Made by a program: the position numbers and the translations under genes. This document shows positions 1 to 46,754 of a stretch of DNA of 46,754 nt, in pieces. The notes under the pieces were generated by a model that worked only from the letters and a program-made list of their open reading frames with translations, did no database searches and was not told where the DNA came from. Every line of letters starts with the position of its first letter. The first letter of the stretch is position 1. Origin of the DNA: a virus (Duplodnaviria; Caudoviricetes); the IMG/VR virus record IMGVR_UViG_3300020044_009410, positions 1 to 46,754 of that record, one strand, 5' to 3'.

Positions 1-734
1 GTTAATGTCAAAAATTACTTTGGGGGTATGGGGTGGTATATCCACCACTCACACTCCAAATCCCCCCCCCCTACCTTCTCCTCTGCTAAACCCCACCAAA
101 TGGGCGATTACGATTAAATAGCGAGCAATCCTCTCTAAACGCGTTTAAACACTATTATCTGTAAGATACGCACACCCTACCCTTACCATTGACCACCCAC
201 TGAAAACTCAACCACGGGGCTATACGCAAGCCTAGTTATTAACCAACACTAATTAATGCACAGCAAATATACAATAGTGTTGCGAGAATACAACACTATG
301 CCTCGACACAATAAATAATGCAGTAGTTAATACAGCGTAGATATACACACTAATATATATAGTTGATGCAATGCGTAATAATGATTGCACTAATATATAT
401 AGTGTATGTTGATTGATAGCGTTGTTGTGAGTGAATGCGAGTGATGCGATTGTTGATGTGGTATGTGGTATGTAGTATGTGGTTGTGAGTGCAGTGATTG
501 ATGCAGTGCTCGATATGAATAGTAGTGTGCGTTAACCACACACTATATATATAGTTACTCTAGTCTAAACTTCTTCTTCATGCGCTTGAGCACTGTGATG
601 TTAAGATTGTGGTCATCGATACGTTTGTTAATGCGTGCAATGTCTCGTAGCGTCGCACAACGCTGCTTGCAATAGATCAAATCGCTGTATTTAGTAGCTA
701 CATCATCGAGAAGATTGAGAGAATGTAGTGAGAA
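1..734 (+). repeat. Left inverted terminal repeat (734 bp)
   Basis: Reverse complement of 46021..46754; ends and spot checks match, ORF 350..541(-) equals 46214..46405(+); identity stops at 735/46020. Confidence 0.95.
456..483 (+). repeat. 4 x 7-bp tandem repeat (atgtggt) in a GT-rich low-complexity tract
   Basis: atgtggt atgtggt atgtagt atgtggt. Confidence 0.85.
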
Positions 735-932
735 TATATACACTACGCAAGAAAACTTAGCTTTATTTCTCACAATTTTCCTCAAATCCCCTTCAATTCC
801 CACGAATCTCGCAATTTCCGCATCAGAATATTTAGACTGTAGTATGCGCAACATAGACACTATGCGCATTTGAGAGTTATTCAGCATTGATTCATTTAGT
901 TGATCAAGTGTATTAATTTGCTGTTTAGCCAT
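555..932 (-). CDS. Putative HTH DNA-binding protein (candidate repressor)
   Basis: GGAG RBS; YSDAEIARFVGI resembles an XRE/Cro HTH; divergent from the early promoters. Confidence 0.55.
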   Translation of the reverse strand: MAKQQINTLDQLNESMLNNSQMRIVSMLRILQSKYSDAEIARFVGIEGDLRKIVRNKAKFSCVVYIFSLHSLNLLDDVATKYSDLIYCKQRCATLRDIARINKRIDDHNLNITVLKRMKKKFRLE

Positions 933-1024: not shown

Positions 1025-1053
1025 TTGACAATGTCATCGTGATGACATATACT
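1025..1053 (+). promoter_or_regulatory. Sigma70 early promoter P1 with palindromic operator in the spacer
   Basis: TTGACA-N17-TATACT; atgtcatc-gt-gatgacat at 1031..1048. Confidence 0.85.
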
Positions 1054-1109
1054 TTAATTACAGTAGTTAAACAGATTGATTAACACAACAGTAGTTACCT
1101 GGAGCTAAC

Positions 1110-1196
1110 ATGATTGAATTACGCGACAACATAGCACTAATGATTTTATTTGTAGTGCTAACATCAGCAGTATTAACTCTAATCGTTACATATTAA
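1110..1196 (+). CDS. 28-aa hydrophobic single-TM peptide (not in ORF track)
   Basis: GGAG RBS at 1101; MIELRDNIALMILFVVLTSAVLTLIVTY; first ORF after P1. Confidence 0.65.
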   Translation: MIELRDNIALMILFVVLTSAVLTLIVTY

Positions 1197-1241
1197 ACAA
1201 CACATTATCAAAAATACAACACAACAGACATGTAAATAATA

Positions 1242-1270
1242 TTGACAATGGCATCACGATGACATACAAT
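1242..1270 (+). promoter_or_regulatory. Sigma70 early promoter P2 with the same operator
   Basis: TTGACA-N17-TACAAT; atggcatc-ac-gatgacat at 1248..1265. Confidence 0.85.
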
Positions 1271-2447: not shown

Positions 2448-2684
2448 ATGAGAATGCTACCAATTTCATTACAAATACAAACAAAAGAGGAAGCAGCTAA
2501 AAAGTCAATCGCTCGAAAACAAGTAAGTAAACACACAACAGATTATTTTTTTAGTGATGGTTCAAAAATAAGAATATATTTTAGGCACTTCTTAAAAAGA
2601 GCTTTGACGATTGAATGGCAAAAAGCTTCATATGGAACATTTATGCTACACAAAAAACAAAACGGCTTTAGATCATGGAAATAA
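2448..2684 (+). CDS. Hypothetical basic protein
   Basis: GAGGAG RBS before ATG 2448, preferred over 2322. Confidence 0.7.
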   Translation: MRMLPISLQIQTKEEAAKKSIARKQVSKHTTDYFFSDGSKIRIYFRHFLKRALTIEWQKASYGTFMLHKKQNGFRSWK

Positions 2685-2699
2685 GAAAGGGGCATTAAC

Positions 2700-3038
2700 A
2701 TGGGATTAGACATTAAAATCACGGCTCAAGTAGAGCTTGAAGAAAACATAGTAAAAGATTTACTAAAAAAACATAACATTTTTTTTAATAAAATACAAAC
2801 TAATGTAGCCAACTTAAGAAATGATTACAATCTGCATAATACAATTTGCACTCATGAAAACGTTGAAGAAACAGCAAATAATCAAATAGAATTTGATGAT
2901 TTTGTGCTTTATCTAGAAGATGCAATCGTTTCTTCTAATGAAGTCAGCGAGAAAGATTTGTACAAAAAAATACTAGATAAATTAAACTCAATGCAAAGCG
3001 AGTTTGGGTATGTTGATGTTTTCTATAGGTTTTATTAA
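2700..3038 (+). CDS. Hypothetical protein
   Basis: RBS AAGGGG, 112 aa, MGLDI start common in phage proteins. Confidence 0.75.
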   Translation: MGLDIKITAQVELEENIVKDLLKKHNIFFNKIQTNVANLRNDYNLHNTICTHENVEETANNQIEFDDFVLYLEDAIVSSNEVSEKDLYKKILDKLNSMQSEFGYVDVFYRFY

Positions 3039-3725: not shown

Positions 3726-3942
3726 ACCGCCCGAATTTCACTGTTTAACAGACCATCAAAAAAATTTGATATATGAAACATCTAAAATTCATGAGAATTA
3801 TGGTAGGTTAAAAGCGATATTTTGGCTATATACAAAGATGAACTACGTTAACAATGGAAGAGAGCGTGAAGCGTTTCAGGACGGGATGCGCGCATATTTC
3901 AAATGGCATGGGATAAAGGGTTTTTATGAAATCGAAAGATGA
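3694..3942 (+). CDS. Hypothetical protein
   Basis: 82 aa, operon packing. Confidence 0.55.
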   Translation: MKRQYARLRSEPPEFHCLTDHQKNLIYETSKIHENYGRLKAIFWLYTKMNYVNNGREREAFQDGMRAYFKWHGIKGFYEIER

Positions 3943-4183
3943 CGAAGGGGTAAGCATAAAAACATTCAGAGCATCAATAACTCTGCTATTTGAAGCAATG
4001 ATAAGCATCGGTATCAATGCAAATATACTTGTTTTAATTCATGAAGAAGTATTAAAAGTAATTTTTGACCTCGCAGAAGTCCATTGCCTAGGTAACGACA
4101 AAAAGACAGCGGAACTTCTTGGTTTAAGTAAGCAGGCATATCTGCAACTGCGTGCAGAAATGAAAATAGACCGCAAAATTTAG
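3926..4183 (+). CDS. Divergent Fis-like protein
   Basis: EEVLKVIFDLAEVHCLGNDKKTAELLGLS aligns gaplessly with Fis [29 protein letters not shown]. Confidence 0.65.
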   Translation: MKSKDDEGVSIKTFRASITLLFEAMISIGINANILVLIHEEVLKVIFDLAEVHCLGNDKKTAELLGLSKQAYLQLRAEMKIDRKI

Positions 4184-4191
4184 GAGCTAAC

Positions 4192-4416
4192 ATGATAAGC
4201 AACCATTTAATTAAATTTTCAATTTTAAATTTTAAAATAGCGCGTGAATCTATCAACAAAGATGAGTTTGATCTTTACGCCGTCGGTTTGTTTGACGGTA
4301 TGCTTGCAGAGTTCTACATGGATGGTGATATGGTTTTTGTACGGGACTATGAACATTTTATTAAAACTAACCCACCACAGTTTTTTTGTGTCCTCAGAAA
4401 GGAAAAACAATCATGA
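4192..4416 (+). CDS. Hypothetical protein
   Basis: AGGAG RBS, 74 aa. Confidence 0.7.
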   Translation: MISNHLIKFSILNFKIARESINKDEFDLYAVGLFDGMLAEFYMDGDMVFVRDYEHFIKTNPPQFFCVLRKEKQS

Positions 4417-4637
4417 GCATTTATGACCAATTGTCACTATATATCACAGAGCAGGAATGCAAAGAGCTTTCACTAGCTGTAAGCTTCGCAGAATCAAATA
4501 CAAATGATGAAAACCTAAAAAAAATAGGAATTATCATCACAAGACACCAAGCGAAAGCAACACAAAGAAAGCATGAGCGTCAACAAGAAATTTTAGACAT
4601 CGCCTTGTCTGAAGCAGAAGCGGAATGGAGGAACTAG
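4413..4637 (+). CDS. Hypothetical protein
   Basis: AAGGA RBS, ATGA overlap. Confidence 0.7.
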   Translation: MSIYDQLSLYITEQECKELSLAVSFAESNTNDENLKKIGIIITRHQAKATQRKHERQQEILDIALSEAEAEWRN

Positions 4638-4838
4638 ATGCAAACCCACGATGAATACATGCGTGATTGTGAAATACACTATTTTGCATTAATGCTAATG
4701 AAATACCAAAATGACCCAGGAGGAATCACACAACTTGTAAAAGAAGCGGGGATGACCAGGGCAACTTATTATCTACGTTTTAATAAAGTTAAAGATGAAG
4801 TACACGCTTTAATCCGTGATAGAGCAAGAAAACAATAG
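4638..4838 (+). CDS. Small HTH protein resembling the Fis/NtrC C-terminal HTH
   Basis: GGAGG RBS; CEIHYFALML...GGITQLVKEAGMTRATYYLRF. Confidence 0.5.
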   Translation: MQTHDEYMRDCEIHYFALMLMKYQNDPGGITQLVKEAGMTRATYYLRFNKVKDEVHALIRDRARKQ

Positions 4839-4844
4839 GTTTAG

Positions 4845-5144
4845 GTGATTGATATGCCAGAATTTGAATTTTACAAACGGTTTATTATTGACGAAATCAG
4901 AAAAACAACAGTGCATAAAAATAAACTCAAAAAAGAGTTGGCGAATATGCAAGAAACTGGCAGTATAAGTGAACTAGCAATTGAAATGCACAATAAAACG
5001 CTTAAAAAGAATCGACCGATATTTCAGTCATCACTGAAAAAAATCGATGAACTAAGAAAACAAAACAAGCAACTAATGAGAGTTGTATCAGACTTAAAGA
5101 TACAGCTAAGAAGTATGAACCAAAGCGAAAAGGAAGCAAAATGA
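4845..5144 (+). CDS. Hypothetical coiled-coil protein
   Basis: 99 aa, K/E/L heptad character. Confidence 0.65.
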   Translation: MIDMPEFEFYKRFIIDEIRKTTVHKNKLKKELANMQETGSISELAIEMHNKTLKKNRPIFQSSLKKIDELRKQNKQLMRVVSDLKIQLRSMNQSEKEAK

Positions 5145-5599
5145 CTAGATTTAGAGCGGTTGACATTAAAAATGGAGTATTGGAGGTTGGCGATATTATT
5201 TTTGAATATACAGATGAAGGCATAGCCAGGGAAGATAAGACAATAATTGCAATAAAGCGCTCCATACATGCAGGCGTTGAGGTTGTTTACTTTGGCGAAA
5301 ATGCTGGATTTATGATTGCCCAATTTGAAGATTTAAGACATTGGAAAAAGAAAATCCCAATTGAGCAAATCCCATTTGATTTAGAACTATTCCGAACTGG
5401 CAAATATGATGTTGAAATACGAGAAGGAAACCGTGTAGAAATATTTGTGCCAGAATTTGCTATAAGAATGGGCAATATATATCCTGTGCATGTAACAACA
5501 CCAAATGAAGGATATTTTTTTTGCTCAGCAAATGGCAAGTATAGCATTGGTTCTGATAGCGAATTAGACTTATTTTTAGTTGAAAAGGAAGCAAAATGA
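5141..5599 (+). CDS. Hypothetical protein, paralogue A1
   Basis: Shares MTRF start and KIPIExIPFDLELF with next gene. Confidence 0.8.
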   Translation: MTRFRAVDIKNGVLEVGDIIFEYTDEGIAREDKTIIAIKRSIHAGVEVVYFGENAGFMIAQFEDLRHWKKKIPIEQIPFDLELFRTGKYDVEIREGNRVEIFVPEFAIRMGNIYPVHVTTPNEGYFFCSANGKYSIGSDSELDLFLVEKEAK

Positions 5600-6066
5600 C
5601 TAGATTTAAACTTGTGGAAATAACTGAAGACAACCTCAAAGTGGGAAGCATATTTGTTAACCCAAAGACTGGCAAAGAGTATGAAATTATTGCGGTCAAA
5701 GATAGTGAGACATACGGGACAGAAGTAGTTTATTACAATAAAAAGTGTGGGTTTTACTGTAAAGAACTCAATGAGTTTACCGACTACAAGGGTGAGAATT
5801 ATCATTGTAGGTTGAAAATCCCAATTGAGCGAATTCCTTTTGATTTAGAACTATTCAAGACATGCAATTATGATGTTATGAGTAGAGCAGGGGAATCTAT
5901 GGAGGTATTCTTATCTCTTGTCAAATTAAATCTGGGGCATGCCTTTCCCATAATCGGTATAAACGAAACGGGAATGCGAAATGAATACACGGTGCATGGA
6001 AAAATAGAAAAACTTCGTTTTATTGGAAAAGATGAGGACGATTTATTCTTAATTGAAAAGGAATGA
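5596..6066 (+). CDS. Hypothetical protein, paralogue A2
   Basis: Shares MTRF start, KIPIExIPFDLELF and DLFLxEKE end with previous gene. Confidence 0.8.
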   Translation: MTRFKLVEITEDNLKVGSIFVNPKTGKEYEIIAVKDSETYGTEVVYYNKKCGFYCKELNEFTDYKGENYHCRLKIPIERIPFDLELFKTCNYDVMSRAGESMEVFLSLVKLNLGHAFPIIGINETGMRNEYTVHGKIEKLRFIGKDEDDLFLIEKE

Positions 6067-6329
6067 AGATGAGTGAATTAAACTATGTAGACGCATACAA
6101 CACATGTGTAGAACAATTAATTGAAGAACTTGATTTAAAAACAAACATGGAGCATTTTAAACATTGTTTTAGAAATCTTAGCGGACACGACATCGAGACT
6201 TTATTTAAAACAAAAAGTGTTTATGGGTTTTTTAACTTTTTCAATGAAGCACTTAAGCGAGAATCAAAAGACCGCATACAACGCCTTGCAGAAATTAACG
6301 CACATGCACTAATGGCAGAGTTATCATGA
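6063..6329 (+). CDS. Hypothetical protein, paralogue B1
   Basis: TCVEQL-DLKTN-HCFRNLS-ALMAELS shared with next gene. Confidence 0.8.
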   Translation: MKMSELNYVDAYNTCVEQLIEELDLKTNMEHFKHCFRNLSGHDIETLFKTKSVYGFFNFFNEALKRESKDRIQRLAEINAHALMAELS

Positions 6330-6586
6330 ACAAACCAAACTATGATAATTTGTACACAACATGCGTAGAACAATTAAGAGAAGAAGTTGATTTAAAAACA
6401 AATTTAAATCATTACACGCATTGTTTTAGAAATCTCAGTGAAGAATATATTGCGCGTTTATTTGAAAAAAGAAATGCTGAACTTTTTTATTCACTTTTAA
6501 ATGATTTTTTAACGATAGAATCAGAAAATCGCATACAACATCTTGCTGCAATGAAATTAAAAGCACTAATGGCAGAGCTATCATGA
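6326..6586 (+). CDS. Hypothetical protein, paralogue B2
   Basis: Same motifs as 6063..6329. Confidence 0.8.
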   Translation: MNKPNYDNLYTTCVEQLREEVDLKTNLNHYTHCFRNLSEEYIARLFEKRNAELFYSLLNDFLTIESENRIQHLAAMKLKALMAELS

Positions 6587-6663
6587 GCGCGGGCGACTTC
6601 GCATTGTTAGTGTGTCTATTTGTGTTTACCACAGTCCTGACGGTTATGATTTTTAATTATTGA
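6583..6663 (+). CDS. 26-aa hydrophobic peptide (not in ORF track)
   Basis: ATGA overlap; MSAGDFALLVCLFVFTTVLTVMIFNY. Confidence 0.55.
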   Translation: MSAGDFALLVCLFVFTTVLTVMIFNY

Positions 6664-6672
6664 GGTTTTCGT

Positions 6673-6951
6673 ATGGACACGCTAGCCAATGATATCATCT
6701 GTACTTTTTTTAAAGACAATGTTGTAAAAATTGAAATTACGTCATATCGAGCATTGCGATTTTTTGAAGATATTGTAGAAATAAAACCTATAGTTGGGTT
6801 CTTTATTGTTAAAGAAGAAAATCTAGCCGAATTTATGGATTTAATCGAAGGGCTACGCGTTTTGAGAACGGTTGGTGTTGTTGATATGCAAGAACAAGAC
6901 GAATTAGCATCAAAAATAAAACAATTAATTTTGAAGGAGAGTAAAAAATGA
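6673..6951 (+). CDS. Hypothetical protein
   Basis: GAGG RBS, 92 aa. Confidence 0.7.
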   Translation: MDTLANDIICTFFKDNVVKIEITSYRALRFFEDIVEIKPIVGFFIVKEENLAEFMDLIEGLRVLRTVGVVDMQEQDELASKIKQLILKESKK

Positions 6952-7292
6952 GTAAATCAAAATACGAACAAGAAGCTAAGAGTTTAATTGAGGCTATGCT
7001 GAATTTTCAGACTGAAAAAATAAAAGAATCTGAAGAGCGGGTAAAAAAATTAGAAGGGGTGGCTGCGGCACAAAGAGAAAAGATTAAAGATTGGATTAAG
7101 AACGTACTCGATGTTCGAGAAAAGTTAGATAAAGCAGAAGAAAAAATAAAGTGTTTGGAAGAAACAATAAAACAAAAAGACAAACAAATTATAATGTTAC
7201 AAGAAACTATTACAAATTTATTAAAGGAAATTAACGTTATGAATACAGCAATTGATGAGCCGCATAGTTTACTATATAAAAAATTACGCTAA
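6948..7292 (+). CDS. Hypothetical coiled-coil protein
   Basis: AAGGAG RBS; long K/E-rich heptads. Confidence 0.75.
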   Translation: MSKSKYEQEAKSLIEAMLNFQTEKIKESEERVKKLEGVAAAQREKIKDWIKNVLDVREKLDKAEEKIKCLEETIKQKDKQIIMLQETITNLLKEINVMNTAIDEPHSLLYKKLR

Positions 7293-7317
7293 AACACTTA
7301 TTAGATTTTAAAAAAAT

Positions 7318-7770
7318 CTAGGTCTTGATTAATTTTTCACTCAAAAATAAATGCAATATTGCAAGTGCGTCAGCTTGGTTATCATCCAATACATTAAAGC
7401 CACGCCTTGCAGCCTCTTCTATCATATCCTCCTTTTTAGCATTTCCCGCACCAGTCCAAAACTTCTTGATTGTTCCAACCGCATATCCTTGCAACTCAAT
7501 TTTCTTATCCAAAGCCACTAACTGCAAAACCCCCTCAAACGCGCCATAGAGATGCGCCGCTGCACTAGATGAGTGGTTATATACCTTCTCATACAAAACA
7601 TGGTCTACGCCCTCAAAAAGCACCTCAAAATGGCTTTTAAATGTTGATAACCTCTTGCCAGGATGATCATTCTTTTTTGGCGTAGTATTCAGGGTAGAAA
7701 ATGATATCTTGCCATGATCATAAACGGCAATACCGCACTTAGTCCCAACATCAACAGAAATAATTTTCAT
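7318..7770 (-). CDS. ruvC: RuvC-like Holliday junction resolvase
   Basis: IISVDVG..CG, YEKV, IKKFWTGAGNAKKEDM, DDNQADALAI. Confidence 0.85.
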   Translation of the reverse strand: MKIISVDVGTKCGIAVYDHGKISFSTLNTTPKKNDHPGKRLSTFKSHFEVLFEGVDHVLYEKVYNHSSSAAAHLYGAFEGVLQLVALDKKIELQGYAVGTIKKFWTGAGNAKKEDMIEEAARRGFNVLDDNQADALAILHLFLSEKLIKT

Positions 7771-8561
7771 TTTAAATCCCCCATTTCAATGATAACCCCA
7801 TCATAACCTAAATCGCCATTATCTGCAAAAGCGTCGTAACGAGCCTGTGTTGAGTTTTTATTGCCAAATGTATGCCTATGTATATATTCAGCCCTAAAGC
7901 CCCTCCATTGACTCTCTATGACAATCCTAATGGCATCTTCGATTGATATGCCAGCCTTATTTTTTTCTGTAACAAGTAAATCCATAACTCTATGCGTCAA
8001 AGGAGGCTTAATCTTCATTGTTTTGATACGATGGTCAACATATTCCGTTGCAAGCGATTCTTCAACGCCGTAACTTTTAACAATTTCTATTTGTTCTTCA
8101 ATTTTTTTATCTGCAAAACTTTTTTTATCTTTTTTATATACTTCAGTATTAGTTATATATTCAGTATTAGTTATAAAGTCAGTATTAGTTATATCAGTCG
8201 ATTTTTCACTGGATGTATTTTTCATGGCATGTATTTTACGTGGCATGTATTTTTCATCCAGTGTATTTTCGACCGTACGAATTTTTGATTCACAAACAAT
8301 CATTTGTGATTTGATTGAGCCATACCCGCTAGAGTATTTAACAACCTGCACGTAACCAAGCGTTTTTAACTCATTTACCAACGCTTGCAAACGTTTTTCA
8401 CTGATACCAAACTGTGAACACATCTGAACTCTATTGAATTCCCAATTATCGGGCTTGGACAACATCCAGCAGAGCAAGCCAAGCGCGCCAAGACTAATTT
8501 GCTCATCTAAAATTTCTTGTGGTATTACTGTAAACTGTTGCTTTACTTTGCGTACTATCAT
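7767..8561 (-). CDS. Phage replication initiator (lambda O-like, N-terminal winged HTH)
   Basis: FTVIPQEIL...ISLGALGLLCWMLSKPDNWEF...VNELKTLGYV; internal iterons; QWRGF C-terminal motif. Confidence 0.8.
   Translation of the reverse strand: MIVRKVKQQFTVIPQEILDEQISLGALGLLCWMLSKPDNWEFNRVQMCSQFGISEKRLQALVNELKTLGYVQVVKYSSGYGSIKSQMIVCESKIRTVENTLDEKYMPRKIHAMKNTSSEKSTDITNTDFITNTEYITNTEVYKKDKKSFADKKIEEQIEIVKSYGVEESLATEYVDHRIKTMKIKPPLTHRVMDLLVTEKNKAGISIEDAIRIVIESQWRGFRAEYIHRHTFGNKNSTQARYDAFADNGDLGYDGVIIEMGDLK
8143..8276. repeat. Putative replication origin: two iteron arrays inside the initiator gene
   Basis: tcagtattagttata at 8143, 8161, 8179 (18-bp period); rtgtatttt units at 8213, 8229, 8245, 8261 (16-bp period); T-rich tract 8090-8140. 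Confidence 0.75.
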
Positions 8562-8595
8562 TTTTTTCTCCTAAAAAAATAAATTATATTTTGTT

Positions 8596-8623
8596 TGTTG
8601 TATTTTTGCTGTTGTATTTTTGC
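8596..8623. promoter_or_regulatory. Tandem 14-bp repeat between divergent rep and fis genes
   Basis: tgttgtatttttgc x2; shares tgtatttt core with the iterons. Confidence 0.6.
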
Positions 8624-8714
8624 TGAATTTTAAATTAATTATTGCAAAATAAAAAAGCTTGAATTAATATGTATTTAAGCAATCAAAATGCTTTTAAAAA
8701 CGAAAGGAATAAAA

Positions 8715-8972
8715 ATGGACACTGAAATTAATTTTCAAGAGGTTGCAGTAAAATGCATTGATGCGCATGTTTTAAACTTTAAAAACATTACACCAGATAA
8801 TCCTAGCACATTCTACAAAGAGTATTTAGAAATTGTTTTAACACCTTTATATGAGCGGGTAATGAAAGAAGCCAGAGGTAATCAATCAAAAGCTGCATTA
8901 ATGCTGGGCATTAATAGAAATACGTTAAGAAAAAAACTTTTAGAACTTGGCTTAATTAATAAAACTTACTGA
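8715..8972 (+). CDS. fis: Fis family DNA-binding protein
   Basis: PLYERVMKEARGNQSKAALMLGINRNTLRKKL is a near-canonical Fis HTH; AAAGGA RBS before ATG 8715. Confidence 0.9.
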   Translation: MDTEINFQEVAVKCIDAHVLNFKNITPDNPSTFYKEYLEIVLTPLYERVMKEARGNQSKAALMLGINRNTLRKKLLELGLINKTY

Positions 8973-9121
8973 AGCCACGAAAGAAGACCGCATACTTCAT
9001 CGGGGAACCAAAGAGCATAGGCAATCGTAACCTAGAAACACAAGAAAGAGAGGCAAGCAAAATGTAACCCGACACGCAAACCAAATAATAGAGACAACAT
9101 AAATTTAAAATCAGTACGTAA

Positions 9122-9260
9122 CCCAGCCGCGTAAGTGCTGGGGCTAAGATTGAAGCGGCGGCGTGGAAGGACACGCCAGAGACGGCACTTGTGGCGGTAG
9201 GCGCAAGCTGAACAACACCAGAGTGAGCTGGTATCAAGCCCAGCCCGCTTCAATGTTAGT
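9122..9260 (+). ncRNA. Candidate structured tRNA-like RNA
   Basis: Closing stem 9143-9158/9245-9260, D-like hairpin 9160-9177, T-like hairpin 9227-9244, upstream hairpin 9122-9142; GC-rich intergenic DNA. Confidence 0.6.
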
Positions 9261-13665: not shown

Positions 13666-14316
13666 ATGATCATGGAAAAAAAGGCAATCTACGAATCTCT
13701 AAATGCGATAGCAACAGAGCTAAGCAAGTATGGCATTTCTAAAGATAGGAAAAACCAACATCAAGGCTACATGTTTAGGGGGATTGATGAGGTTTATAAT
13801 GTGGTTAGTTCAATCTTAGCTGCGAACAAAGTAATAATCAAGCCAGATGTTACAGAGCATTCAAGACATGAAGTTACAAACACGAAAGGGACATTAACCT
13901 TTTATCACTACATAAAAATAAAATATACTGTTCTATCCCTAATAGACGGCTCAACAATTGAGAGTCAATGGGTATCAGAAAGCATGGACACATCTGATAA
14001 AGGGTTAAGTAAAGCACTTTCCAACGCATATAAAACCCTGCTATTCCAATTGTTTTGCATCCCAATCGAAGGTGTAAACCCAGAGGATGACGACCACCAA
14101 GTTACGGCTTCGGATGCTCAAAAAATTCCAACTTTTCAAGACGTTATTGGGGCATTTGATCATTCGTTAGTTTCTAGCAAACTACGAGAGCTGCATTTGA
14201 AGTTGCACGGAACAGAAATGGAGGGCAATAGTTCAGAGGCTTTTTTCAATTCTCAGACAGATAAGATGAAGCAATCTATATTTAAACGGCTAAGTGACCT
14301 ATCAAACGGGGGTTAA
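13666..14316 (+). CDS. erf: ERF-family single-strand annealing protein
   Basis: GISKDRKNQHQGYMFRGIDEVYN...DGS...ESMDTSDKG.SKA.S.AYK..LFQLFCIP. Confidence 0.85.
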   Translation: MIMEKKAIYESLNAIATELSKYGISKDRKNQHQGYMFRGIDEVYNVVSSILAANKVIIKPDVTEHSRHEVTNTKGTLTFYHYIKIKYTVLSLIDGSTIESQWVSESMDTSDKGLSKALSNAYKTLLFQLFCIPIEGVNPEDDDHQVTASDAQKIPTFQDVIGAFDHSLVSSKLRELHLKLHGTEMEGNSSEAFFNSQTDKMKQSIFKRLSDLSNGG

Positions 14317-14317
14317 T

Positions 14318-14968
14318 ATGAATCGCCTTTTAGCTAAGCGCATGTTAAAAGGTGAAAGCGTCAGTCTGATGGAGATAATCTTCAGAAGGTTTGACGCATT
14401 CTTCCCTGGCAGGTTTTCAAAAATGTTTTCAAGTCAGGGTCAAAAAGCCAACTGGATAGAGGTTTGGGCAGAGGCACTTGATTCCGAAGGGGTAACAGAT
14501 GATGAGATACGGGTCGGGCTAAAAGCAGTCCAAAATAACTCTCAGTTTGTACCGTCTCTAGGAGAGTTTATTAAACTGTGTAGACCTCCTATAGATTATT
14601 TTTCAGAGCTAGCTTATTGCAAGGAACAATGGGCAAACAGAGCATCTGGAAAGCCAGAGCATTGGAAGAATTCTATATTTTTTTGGGCAACATCAAGATT
14701 AAGTTTTGAAATATCGAATTACCCTGAACTGGTAAATGAAAAAAGATTTGAATCAGAATGCAAGCTAGTTGGCAACATGATAAAAAACGGGATTCTTCAA
14801 AATGAGATACCGAAATTTGCGCCCCAACTTTTCTACAAAGAAAGCGCGTTTGACAAAGAAAAGGCGAGGAAGCGAATGGAAGAGATTATGAAAATAATAA
14901 AAAAACCCGCCGAAGCGGGAAAGGAGCAATATGACAAAACAAAATTAAATATAACTGATGAGAGTTAG
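14318..14968 (+). CDS. Lambda P-like replication protein (helicase loader)
   Basis: IFRRF...W.EVWAEAL..EGVT.DEIRVGL...F.PSLGEFIKLCRP. Confidence 0.7.
   Translation: MNRLLAKRMLKGESVSLMEIIFRRFDAFFPGRFSKMFSSQGQKANWIEVWAEALDSEGVTDDEIRVGLKAVQNNSQFVPSLGEFIKLCRPPIDYFSELAYCKEQWANRASGKPEHWKNSIFFWATSRLSFEISNYPELVNEKRFESECKLVGNMIKNGILQNEIPKFAPQLFYKESAFDKEKARKRMEEIMKIIKKPAEAGKEQYDKTKLNITDES
14899..14919 (-). terminator. Intrinsic terminator on the minus strand
   Basis: CCCGC-TTCG-GCGGG followed by T7 on the minus strand. Confidence 0.7.
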
Positions 14969-45943: not shown

Positions 45944-46025
45944 GTTAGTGGCAAAAATTACTTTGGGTGTATGGGGGGGTATATCCACCACTCACACTCC
46001 AAATCCCCCCTCCCCCTACCTTCTC
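45944..46025 (+). repeat. Imperfect direct copy of positions 1..80
   Basis: gttagtggcaaaaattactttgggtgtatgggggggtatatccacc...ctaccttctc versus 1..80; 4 substitutions and a 2-nt longer C-tract. Confidence 0.93.
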
Positions 46026-46754
46026 ACTACATTCTCTCAATCTTCTCGATGATGTAGCTACTAAATACAGCGATTTGATCTATTGCAAGCAGCGTTGTGC
46101 GACGCTACGAGACATTGCACGCATTAACAAACGTATCGATGACCACAATCTTAACATCACAGTGCTCAAGCGCATGAAGAAGAAGTTTAGACTAGAGTAA
46201 CTATATATATAGTGTGTGGTTAACGCACACTACTATTCATATCGAGCACTGCATCAATCACTGCACTCACAACCACATACTACATACCACATACCACATC
46301 AACAATCGCATCACTCGCATTCACTCACAACAACGCTATCAATCAACATACACTATATATATTAGTGCAATCATTATTACGCATTGCATCAACTATATAT
46401 ATTAGTGTGTATATCTACGCTGTATTAACTACTGCATTATTTATTGTGTCGAGGCATAGTGTTGTATTCTCGCAACACTATTGTATATTTGCTGTGCATT
46501 AATTAGTGTTGGTTAATAACTAGGCTTGCGTATAGCCCCGTGGTTGAGTTTTCAGTGGGTGGTCAATGGTAAGGGTAGGGTGTGCGTATCTTACAGATAA
46601 TAGTGTTTAAACGCGTTTAGAGAGGATTGCTCGCTATTTAATCGTAATCGCCCATTTGGTGGGGTTTAGCAGAGGAGAAGGTAGGGGGGGGGGATTTGGA
46701 GTGTGAGTGGTGGATATACCACCCCATACCCCCAAAGTAATTTTTGACATTAAC
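46021..46754 (-). repeat. Right inverted terminal repeat (734 bp)
   Basis: Reverse complement of 1..734. Confidence 0.95.

Follow-up and report, generated by a model that had tools for sequence, protein, structure and literature searches.

A phage genome with an intact Fis-family gene and a predicted Fis-fold protein whose recognition helix is replaced

Why should a phage carry two genes of Fis character, one with its DNA contacts in place and one whose recognition helix has been replaced? The question is raised by a tailed-phage record (Caudoviricetes; IMGVR_UViG_3300020044_009410), the whole 46,754 bp of which we analysed and here call the window. An initial annotation, made from the letters alone, had picked out three plus-strand reading frames – 3926..4183, 4638..4838 and 8715..8972 – as a Fis set: a canonical Fis with one or two paralogues bearing rewritten recognition helices, the early one acting as a decoy for host Fis and the canonical one as its replacement. 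The three reading frames, and the motifs quoted for them, are indeed there. Sequence comparison and structural modelling together indicate that this phage has an intact Fis-family protein (8715..8972) plus an orphan protein of predicted Fis fold with a replaced recognition helix (3926..4183). The reading of the latter that we favour, and to which we give about an even chance, is that it is a re-specified homodimeric DNA-binding regulator with targets of its own, acting independently of the intact copy.

Library searches with the 85-residue product of 3926..4183 returned no helix-turn-helix (HTH) or Fis match in Pfam, PHROGs, NCBIfam or the sequences of the PDB, the only Pfam match being an unrelated one (E 0.027); against HTH_8 there was none at E up to 1, nor did a profile search of the phage's own genome produce one. 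No relatives were found among 5.8 billion proteins or 1.84 billion representatives, or among isolated phages at E up to 1; one 16-residue match in viral contigs was taken as chance. Evidence for the fold came from profile, matrix and structural comparisons. The protein aligns with helices A–D of Fis (named as in the E. coli protein) almost without gaps; a profile of 85 Fis homologues gives it 8.7 bits, a score reached by 3 of 5000 shuffles, and hhalign pairs it with Fis at E 2e-4 (probability 46%). With helix D omitted and helices A, B and C scored as one matrix, it stands at z 7.3 (0/3000 shuffles) and ranks second of the 213 reading frames of the window, behind only the intact copy. When each helix is scored alone, 0 of 2000 shuffles do as well for helix C; the corresponding counts are 91 for helix B and 1086 for helix A. 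No segment is better preserved than helix C, which retains 69% of the intact copy's matrix score (29.3/42.3) against 39% (10.8/27.5) for helix B, and helix D scores under the shuffle mean.

In the ESM Atlas the features of the protein match HTH_8 clusters at 0.95, with TM 0.69–0.79. AlphaFold2, run on the single sequence, predicts four helices (pLDDT 68.5); the top Foldseek match of this model is E. coli Fis (probability 0.99, TM 0.54), at an E of 0.09 that is not significant, and the six best rows returned by VIA are all Fis or NtrC domains, at middling Z of 5.7–7.2 that are not significant alone. These comparisons support a predicted Fis fold with helix D replaced, much as the initial annotation had it, save that the match takes in helix A as well as helices B–D; Foldseek, suggested there, is among the searches that put the model closest to Fis and NtrC domains. 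A frameshift hiding a canonical helix D was ruled out, no other frame holding such a helix; codon use favours the annotated frame. The hydrophobic pattern and the HTH glycines are kept despite an identity to the intact copy of, by eye, ~22%.

Relative to Fis the divergent protein carries Q74D, N84S, R85K, T87A, R89L, K90Q and K91L; N73 and the HTH glycine are retained. It is without Q68, R71 and Q74, the residues that make up the RNA polymerase contact patch of Fis. At seven positions in helices A and B – V31F, Y38L, Y51L, L55H, E59L, P61V and M67E – it carries residues found in none of 119 Fis homologues, a reference set gathered via words of the intact copy, so that the invariance of helix D in it is partly circular and that of E59 is not. 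Table 1 of PMC7166090 has R85A, T87A and K90A each lowering the binding of Fis several hundred-fold, and because single substitutions cost so much, binding of the divergent protein to Fis sites is, on its sequence, very unlikely. N73 is described in PMC4784862 as an important phosphate contact of Fis. E. coli TyrR aligns with H85, A87, A89 and N90 at the Fis contact positions and is reported to bind TyrR boxes (PMC10170061); a Fis-type fold can thus bind DNA without the contact residues of Fis, the TyrR HTH being the more basic.

The product of 8715..8972, also of 85 amino acids, is a Fis-family protein of the short, betaproteobacterial-like type. It matches Pfam HTH_8 at 42.7 bits (cut-off 22, E 4.7e-11) and E. 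coli Fis in the PDB at E 7.7e-10 over residues 40–97, and the DNA contacts N73, Q74, N84, R85, T87, R89, K90 and K91 are intact, as in E. coli Fis. The NCBIfam equivalog cut-offs for Fis are missed (67.9 against 122 for PRK01905, 54.3 against 99 for PRK00430). About nine residues precede helix A, against 26 in E. coli Fis, and the N-terminal beta-hairpin arms, which Fis needs for Hin and Gin activation, are missing, as they are from the short cellular type. Helix A is unusual (Y38N, L35H), and the protein carries E59L. Its best cellular matches (the top 80 of 566, from a scan covering 15 of 64 parts) are mostly from Burkholderiales and Rhodocyclales at 40–53% identity, for which reason we infer a betaproteobacterial host. 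NinH (PF06322) gave 13 bits against a cut-off of 29.8 (E 0.1), and no match to the other two proteins. Because it falls below both equivalog cut-offs and has a short N-terminus, we regard the protein, on its sequence, as a Fis-family member with an intact HTH and not as a copy of E. coli-type Fis.

The two genes are not demonstrably paralogues, as had been supposed. Over helices B and C their products share 9 of 36 residues, and the DNA likeness of the genes is no better than that of codon shuffles (79 of 500 as good). There is no sister relation either: in a FastTree tree of 111 blocks of 48 columns the divergent protein falls, with weak support, among altered phage Fis-likes, at the end of a long branch and apart from the intact copy. 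With a viral Fis-like protein from contig L180 it shares 16 of the same 36 residues, a partly circular figure, L180 having been found with a motif from 3926..4183.

Judged from the sequences gathered here, Fis-like genes are common in phages, and altered recognition helices recur among them, are conserved, and usually occur without a canonical partner. Scanning viral contigs with canonical words gave 7 loci and with the helix C motif alone 48, of which 11 were dropped (ten looked unrelated, one was already in the set) and 37 kept. All 37 kept records match the Fis profile, one of them, G086 (L258), twice; none of the first 7 has two matches. Canonical-plus-altered pairs thus amount to 1 in 44 Fis-bearing viral records, a lower bound because a whole-record search misses proteins diverged as far as 3926..4183, as it does in the window itself; the co-occurrence that the initial annotation had asked after comes to at least one further pair. 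L258 is a lambdoid fragment with its canonical Fis-like gene in a leftward operon (2643-2864, minus strand) and its altered one (SRCSVQQKY) right after O- and P-like genes (7898-8113, plus strand), the gene names being assigned by eye; the two have exchanged places as compared with the window. In L260, a relative of L258, a 10.9-kb contig spanning the same slot holds the altered gene and no canonical copy, and the altered copy common to both shows a pN of 0.051 and a pS of 0.253. Among 31 distinct small viral Fis-likes – a set picked by profile, which favours intact helices – R85 is kept in all 31 and R85 together with T87 in 29. Near-canonical Fis-likes (NRGT[LF]R[KQ][KR]) are frequent in proviral records of ~40 kb (L180-L227), a family for which no name was met in the literature found.

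Isolated phages present a similar picture. The canonical protein of L258 is matched in 115 records (a few of them bacterial contigs), in one place each. A second type, represented by gp10 of phage AP22 (L261:2422-2622), is present in 78 Acinetobacter phage records, as a single copy in each and unaccompanied by a canonical match, and lies a few genes before terminase in the three records viewed. In the six proteins of this type that were translated helix D is glycine-rich, SR[ST]GL[GS]GILKRV; their pN/pS of 0.16 overall and 0.17 in helix D (values that are uncorrected and come from non-independent pairs) is that of genes under purifying selection. Literature searches found no study of the function of this type.

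On the reading that we favour, helices A and B would dimerise the divergent protein with itself, and a grip on DNA would be kept through N73, K85, the lysines that open helix C and the basic tail. The new helix D would set another specificity or a weaker affinity, and the protein, made early, would tune phage or host promoters. The intact copy, for its part, would bind and bend ordinary Fis-type AT-rich sites, most likely in the divergent promoter region beside it or in the adjoining origin, and would lessen the phage's dependence on host Fis levels. The two genes would have been acquired separately, from a pool of phage Fis-like genes.

Several observations weigh against this reading. No target site of the divergent protein was identified, there are no relatives from which selection on it could be read, and the tree was built from 48 columns and puts the protein on a very long branch. 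Weightiest on this side are the reduced charge and the missing R85: the net charge of the HTH is +1, as against +2 to +7 in the 119 homologues and +5 in TyrR; Q74 has become acidic, with T87, R89, K90 and K91 gone; and a lysine stands in place of R85, which all 31 other small viral Fis-likes and the six Obolenskvirus proteins of the AP22 type retain. The divergent protein is the most extreme altered Fis-like seen, and the only one to lose R85. Finally, position E59 is Leu in the divergent protein and in the intact copy alike, a residue seen there in none of the 31 viral homologues and in none of the 119 cellular ones, all of which have Glu; this hints at shared ancestry of the two or at pairing between them.

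The decoy originally proposed would be a divergent protein that, without DNA binding, enters host Fis dimers and weakens or redirects them, with 8715..8972 supplying Fis activity to the phage. Such exchange is physically possible: as described in PMC8421229, Fis subunits exchange rapidly and Fis-R85A pairs with the wild type in vivo, and for another nucleoid protein there are precedents in truncated H-NS and T7 protein 5.5 (PMC6606824). The loss of R85, T87, R89, K90 and K91, the near-neutral charge of the HTH, the prediction of all four helices and the second canonical-plus-altered pair in L258 would also fit. We nevertheless consider the decoy unlikely, and the proposal as a whole draws little support. 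A decoy must keep a dimer surface fit for host Fis and leaves its HTH free to drift, and what is found looks more like the reverse: seven helix A and B residues are seen in none of 119 Fis homologues, and helix C is kept better than helix B. Together with the DNA binding of TyrR and the conservation of altered Fis-likes without a partner, this leads us to prefer a regulator. In PMC8421229, moreover, 84% of R85A/wild-type heterodimers stay nucleoid-bound and there are ~20,000 native Fis dimers to titrate; one would expect a decoy to poison the Fis of the phage as well; and pairs are rare (at least 1 in 44 records), L260 having the altered copy alone and altered phage Fis-likes mostly lacking a canonical partner. 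More doubtful still is the bolder form of the idea, in which 3926..4183 would be the first phage Fis antagonist, exchanging early into host Fis dimers and dulling Fis-driven host transcription, with an intact Fis altered at its interface avoiding the decoy and serving the phage origin. Were that true, the altered Fis-likes of the 78 cultured Acinetobacter phage records would belong to a wider, unrecognised class of Fis modulators.

Other explanations do without host Fis. It is improbable, as we see it, that 3926..4183 is a passenger in decay, which had a function as a phage Fis-like gene until the intact copy made it redundant and which now drifts unselected: the want of relatives among billions of proteins, the very long branch and a region that duplicates genes freely (5141/5596, 6063/6326) speak for drift, but the reading frame stays open through all 85 codons, its codon usage is normal, the protein retains the hydrophobic pattern and the HTH glycines, and most neighbouring genes are also without a family match, so that orphan status is normal here. 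Slightly less probable again is a private partnership in which the two window proteins form a heterodimer that reads one Fis half-site, or that damps the intact copy at a set time. The E59L common to both, absent from 119 cellular and 31 viral homologues, would suit such a pair, as would the unusual helix A of the intact copy (Y38N, L35H), which may pair poorly with host Fis; yet a single common Leu can be chance, and the low identity over helices B and C, the missing sister relation and the want of DNA-level likeness all count against it. That the likeness of 3926..4183 to Fis is a coincidence of generic helical and HTH character we think very improbable indeed. It is true that no library match exists by sequence and that neither the Foldseek E of 0.09 nor VIA Z values below 8 are significant alone, but a z of 7.3 in register and an Atlas similarity of 0.95 would then be accidents, as would three structure searches that all put Fis and NtrC domains first.

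The third gene, 4638..4838 (plus strand), encodes a three-helix HTH protein of 66 amino acids that resembles NtrC weakly, and is probably an ordinary small phage HTH regulator unrelated to the Fis set. The model has three helices only, helix A being absent; the Fis profile gives no score (3383 of 5000 shuffles as good) and hhalign an E of 0.21. NtrC-type domains match at TM 0.59–0.68, none significantly (Atlas ~0.67; NtrC4 TM 0.59, E 1.4), and the ESM Atlas clusters nearest to it consist of viral proteins without a name (0.91, with 146 features in common). The equivalents of R85 and T87 are present. What survives of its description as a weaker Fis/NtrC HTH is the weak likeness to NtrC; it has neither the profile score of a Fis nor a rewritten helix, and its membership of the Fis set falls away. 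No sequence relatives of this protein were found: three Bacillus phage matches were dismissed (E 0.7), and a Q-like/PA0613 reading, at E 0.099 alone, was dropped. Sigma54 promoters are not in excess in the genome (5 against 4.0 expected).

The neighbourhood of the intact gene bears on its role. Divergent from it lies a lambda O-like replication initiator (7767..8561, minus strand; phrog_678, E 5.9e-17), within which an iteron-like array at 8142..8273 – three 18-bp and three to four 16-bp repeats in inverted arrangement – is, by analogy with the layout of lambda, likely to be the origin. The intact gene is the first of a rightward block that runs to a P-like loader, Erf, an exonuclease and a single-stranded DNA-binding protein (SSB). 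Its placement beside an origin, as the initial annotation had it, is thus borne out. That it serves replication agrees with this position and finds no echo in its expected sites: strict matches to the Fis consensus, of the G-N13-C type, are not enriched in the phage genome (7 against 9.9 expected), and the one at 8332-8346, 60 bp from the iterons, is at chance level. The AT-rich intergenic region between initiator and fis gene (8562..8714) is a candidate target of intact Fis, and holds no strict consensus match. Because the sites are not enriched, it is position that suggests a role for the intact copy at the origin or the divergent promoters. The initiator and the P-like helicase loader (14294-14968, plus strand) are ~6 kb apart on opposite strands, in contrast to the adjacent pair of lambda. 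At 9143-9260 (plus strand), 170 bp 3′ of the fis gene, the predicted fold is a tRNA-like cloverleaf; 9110-9260 has a folding energy of -65.3 kcal/mol (z -3.9, 0 of 200 shuffles as good), and the cloverleaf finds no match in Rfam or by ARAGORN. In viral contigs L267 and L268 the first and last hairpins are the same and the closing stems differ yet still pair; there, Fis-like genes are absent from the 700 bp on either side of the cloverleaf.

Upstream, two near-consensus sigma70 promoters on the plus strand (1025-1053 and 1242-1270, 11 of 12 matches each) head a packed plus-strand block of small genes that includes 3926..4183 and 4638..4838, and transcription from this region (1025..1270) would reach 3926 by read-through. 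The spacer of each promoter holds the palindrome ATGTCATC-NN-GATGACAT, of which these are the only two copies genome-wide. Divergent from the promoters, ORF 555-932 (minus strand) shows, by eye, a stretch resembling an HTH and may encode a repressor. Two tandem pairs of duplicated small genes lie at 5141-6066 (5141/5596) and 6063-6586 (6063/6326). As a whole the window is the complete viral record (100% by CheckV), with inverted terminal repeats, a podovirus-type structural block and, by PHROGs, the O-like initiator, RuvC, P-like loader, Erf, exonuclease and SSB; among the 64 ORFs compared with PHROGs there is no integrase. The terminal repeat is perfect over 734 bp (1-734 and 46021-46754) and takes in the 3′ part of ORF 555-932, and an 82-bp copy of the genome end, 93% identical, lies just inside the right repeat at 45944-46025; these may be the true ends, or an artefact of assembly or amplification. 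The closest terminase matches reach 46% at most, capsid and initiator scans for close relatives gave no loci, and HTH_8 was found in none of the 49 terminase-matched loci searched (of 80 found), 17 near-complete ones included.

How do these proteins stand beside known ones? Like E. coli Fis (PDB 1ETY, 3IV5) and the short betaproteobacterial Fis (PRK01905), the intact copy has helices B–D and all main DNA contacts; it differs in being phage-borne, below the equivalog cut-offs, without the N-terminal extension, and in E59L and its unusual helix A; the divergent protein has the A–D register of E. coli Fis with helix D replaced and Q68, R71 and Q74 gone. The C-terminal DNA-binding domains of the NtrC-family activators and TyrR (PDB 3E7L, 4FTH) have the HTH fold, provide the best structural matches of 4638..4838, and in TyrR bind DNA without R85, T87, R89 and K90, but they are the tails of large activators, whereas the phage proteins stand alone in a genome with no excess of sigma54 promoters. 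H-NST and T7 protein 5.5, mobile-element proteins that, as presented in PMC6606824, pair with a host nucleoid protein, are the model for a decoy; their target is H-NS, and H-NST is without its whole DNA-binding domain, whereas 3926..4183 retains the HTH scaffold, with its helix D contacts lost and seven helix A and B positions outside the range of the 119 homologues.

The one phage Fis mimic known from study is NinH of lambda (PF06322), which retains Fis DNA contacts and is described in PMC7166090 as the first phage Fis-like nucleoid protein. According to that paper it is a phage-encoded, early-expressed Fis-like homodimer that binds and bends DNA; unlike the two Fis-type proteins of the window it is without helix A and dimerises via its C-terminal region, and it keeps 7 of 8 DNA contacts. 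Its authors suggest competition with Fis, or importance at low host Fis levels, and in this they anticipate the replacement half of the initial annotation's idea; heterodimers are never mentioned in the paper's main text. As to the other half, literature searches over titles and the starts of abstracts, with most subscription papers outside their reach, found no description of a Fis decoy or of a two-Fis phage.

The Obolenskvirus proteins (AP22 gp10, IME-AB2 gp33), which are annotated 'HTH DNA binding protein' and in some records fis or Fis family, offer another comparison. Like the divergent protein they are small Fis-likes with intact helices B–C and an altered helix D, encoded in a block of small genes; they differ in keeping R85 and E59, in their length of 65–66 amino acids with a shorter N-terminus, and in occurring as a single copy with no canonical partner, and they show no detectable sequence match to 3926..4183. 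If altered Fis-likes bind new sites, a host nucleoid protein would have been turned into a phage regulator by the swap of one helix; if they poison Fis, they would represent a new kind of host take-over, aimed at a growth-phase regulator. The protein encoded by 3926..4183 is a single orphan; the Obolenskvirus protein, whose gene comes from phages in culture, is the one with which the question can be tested.

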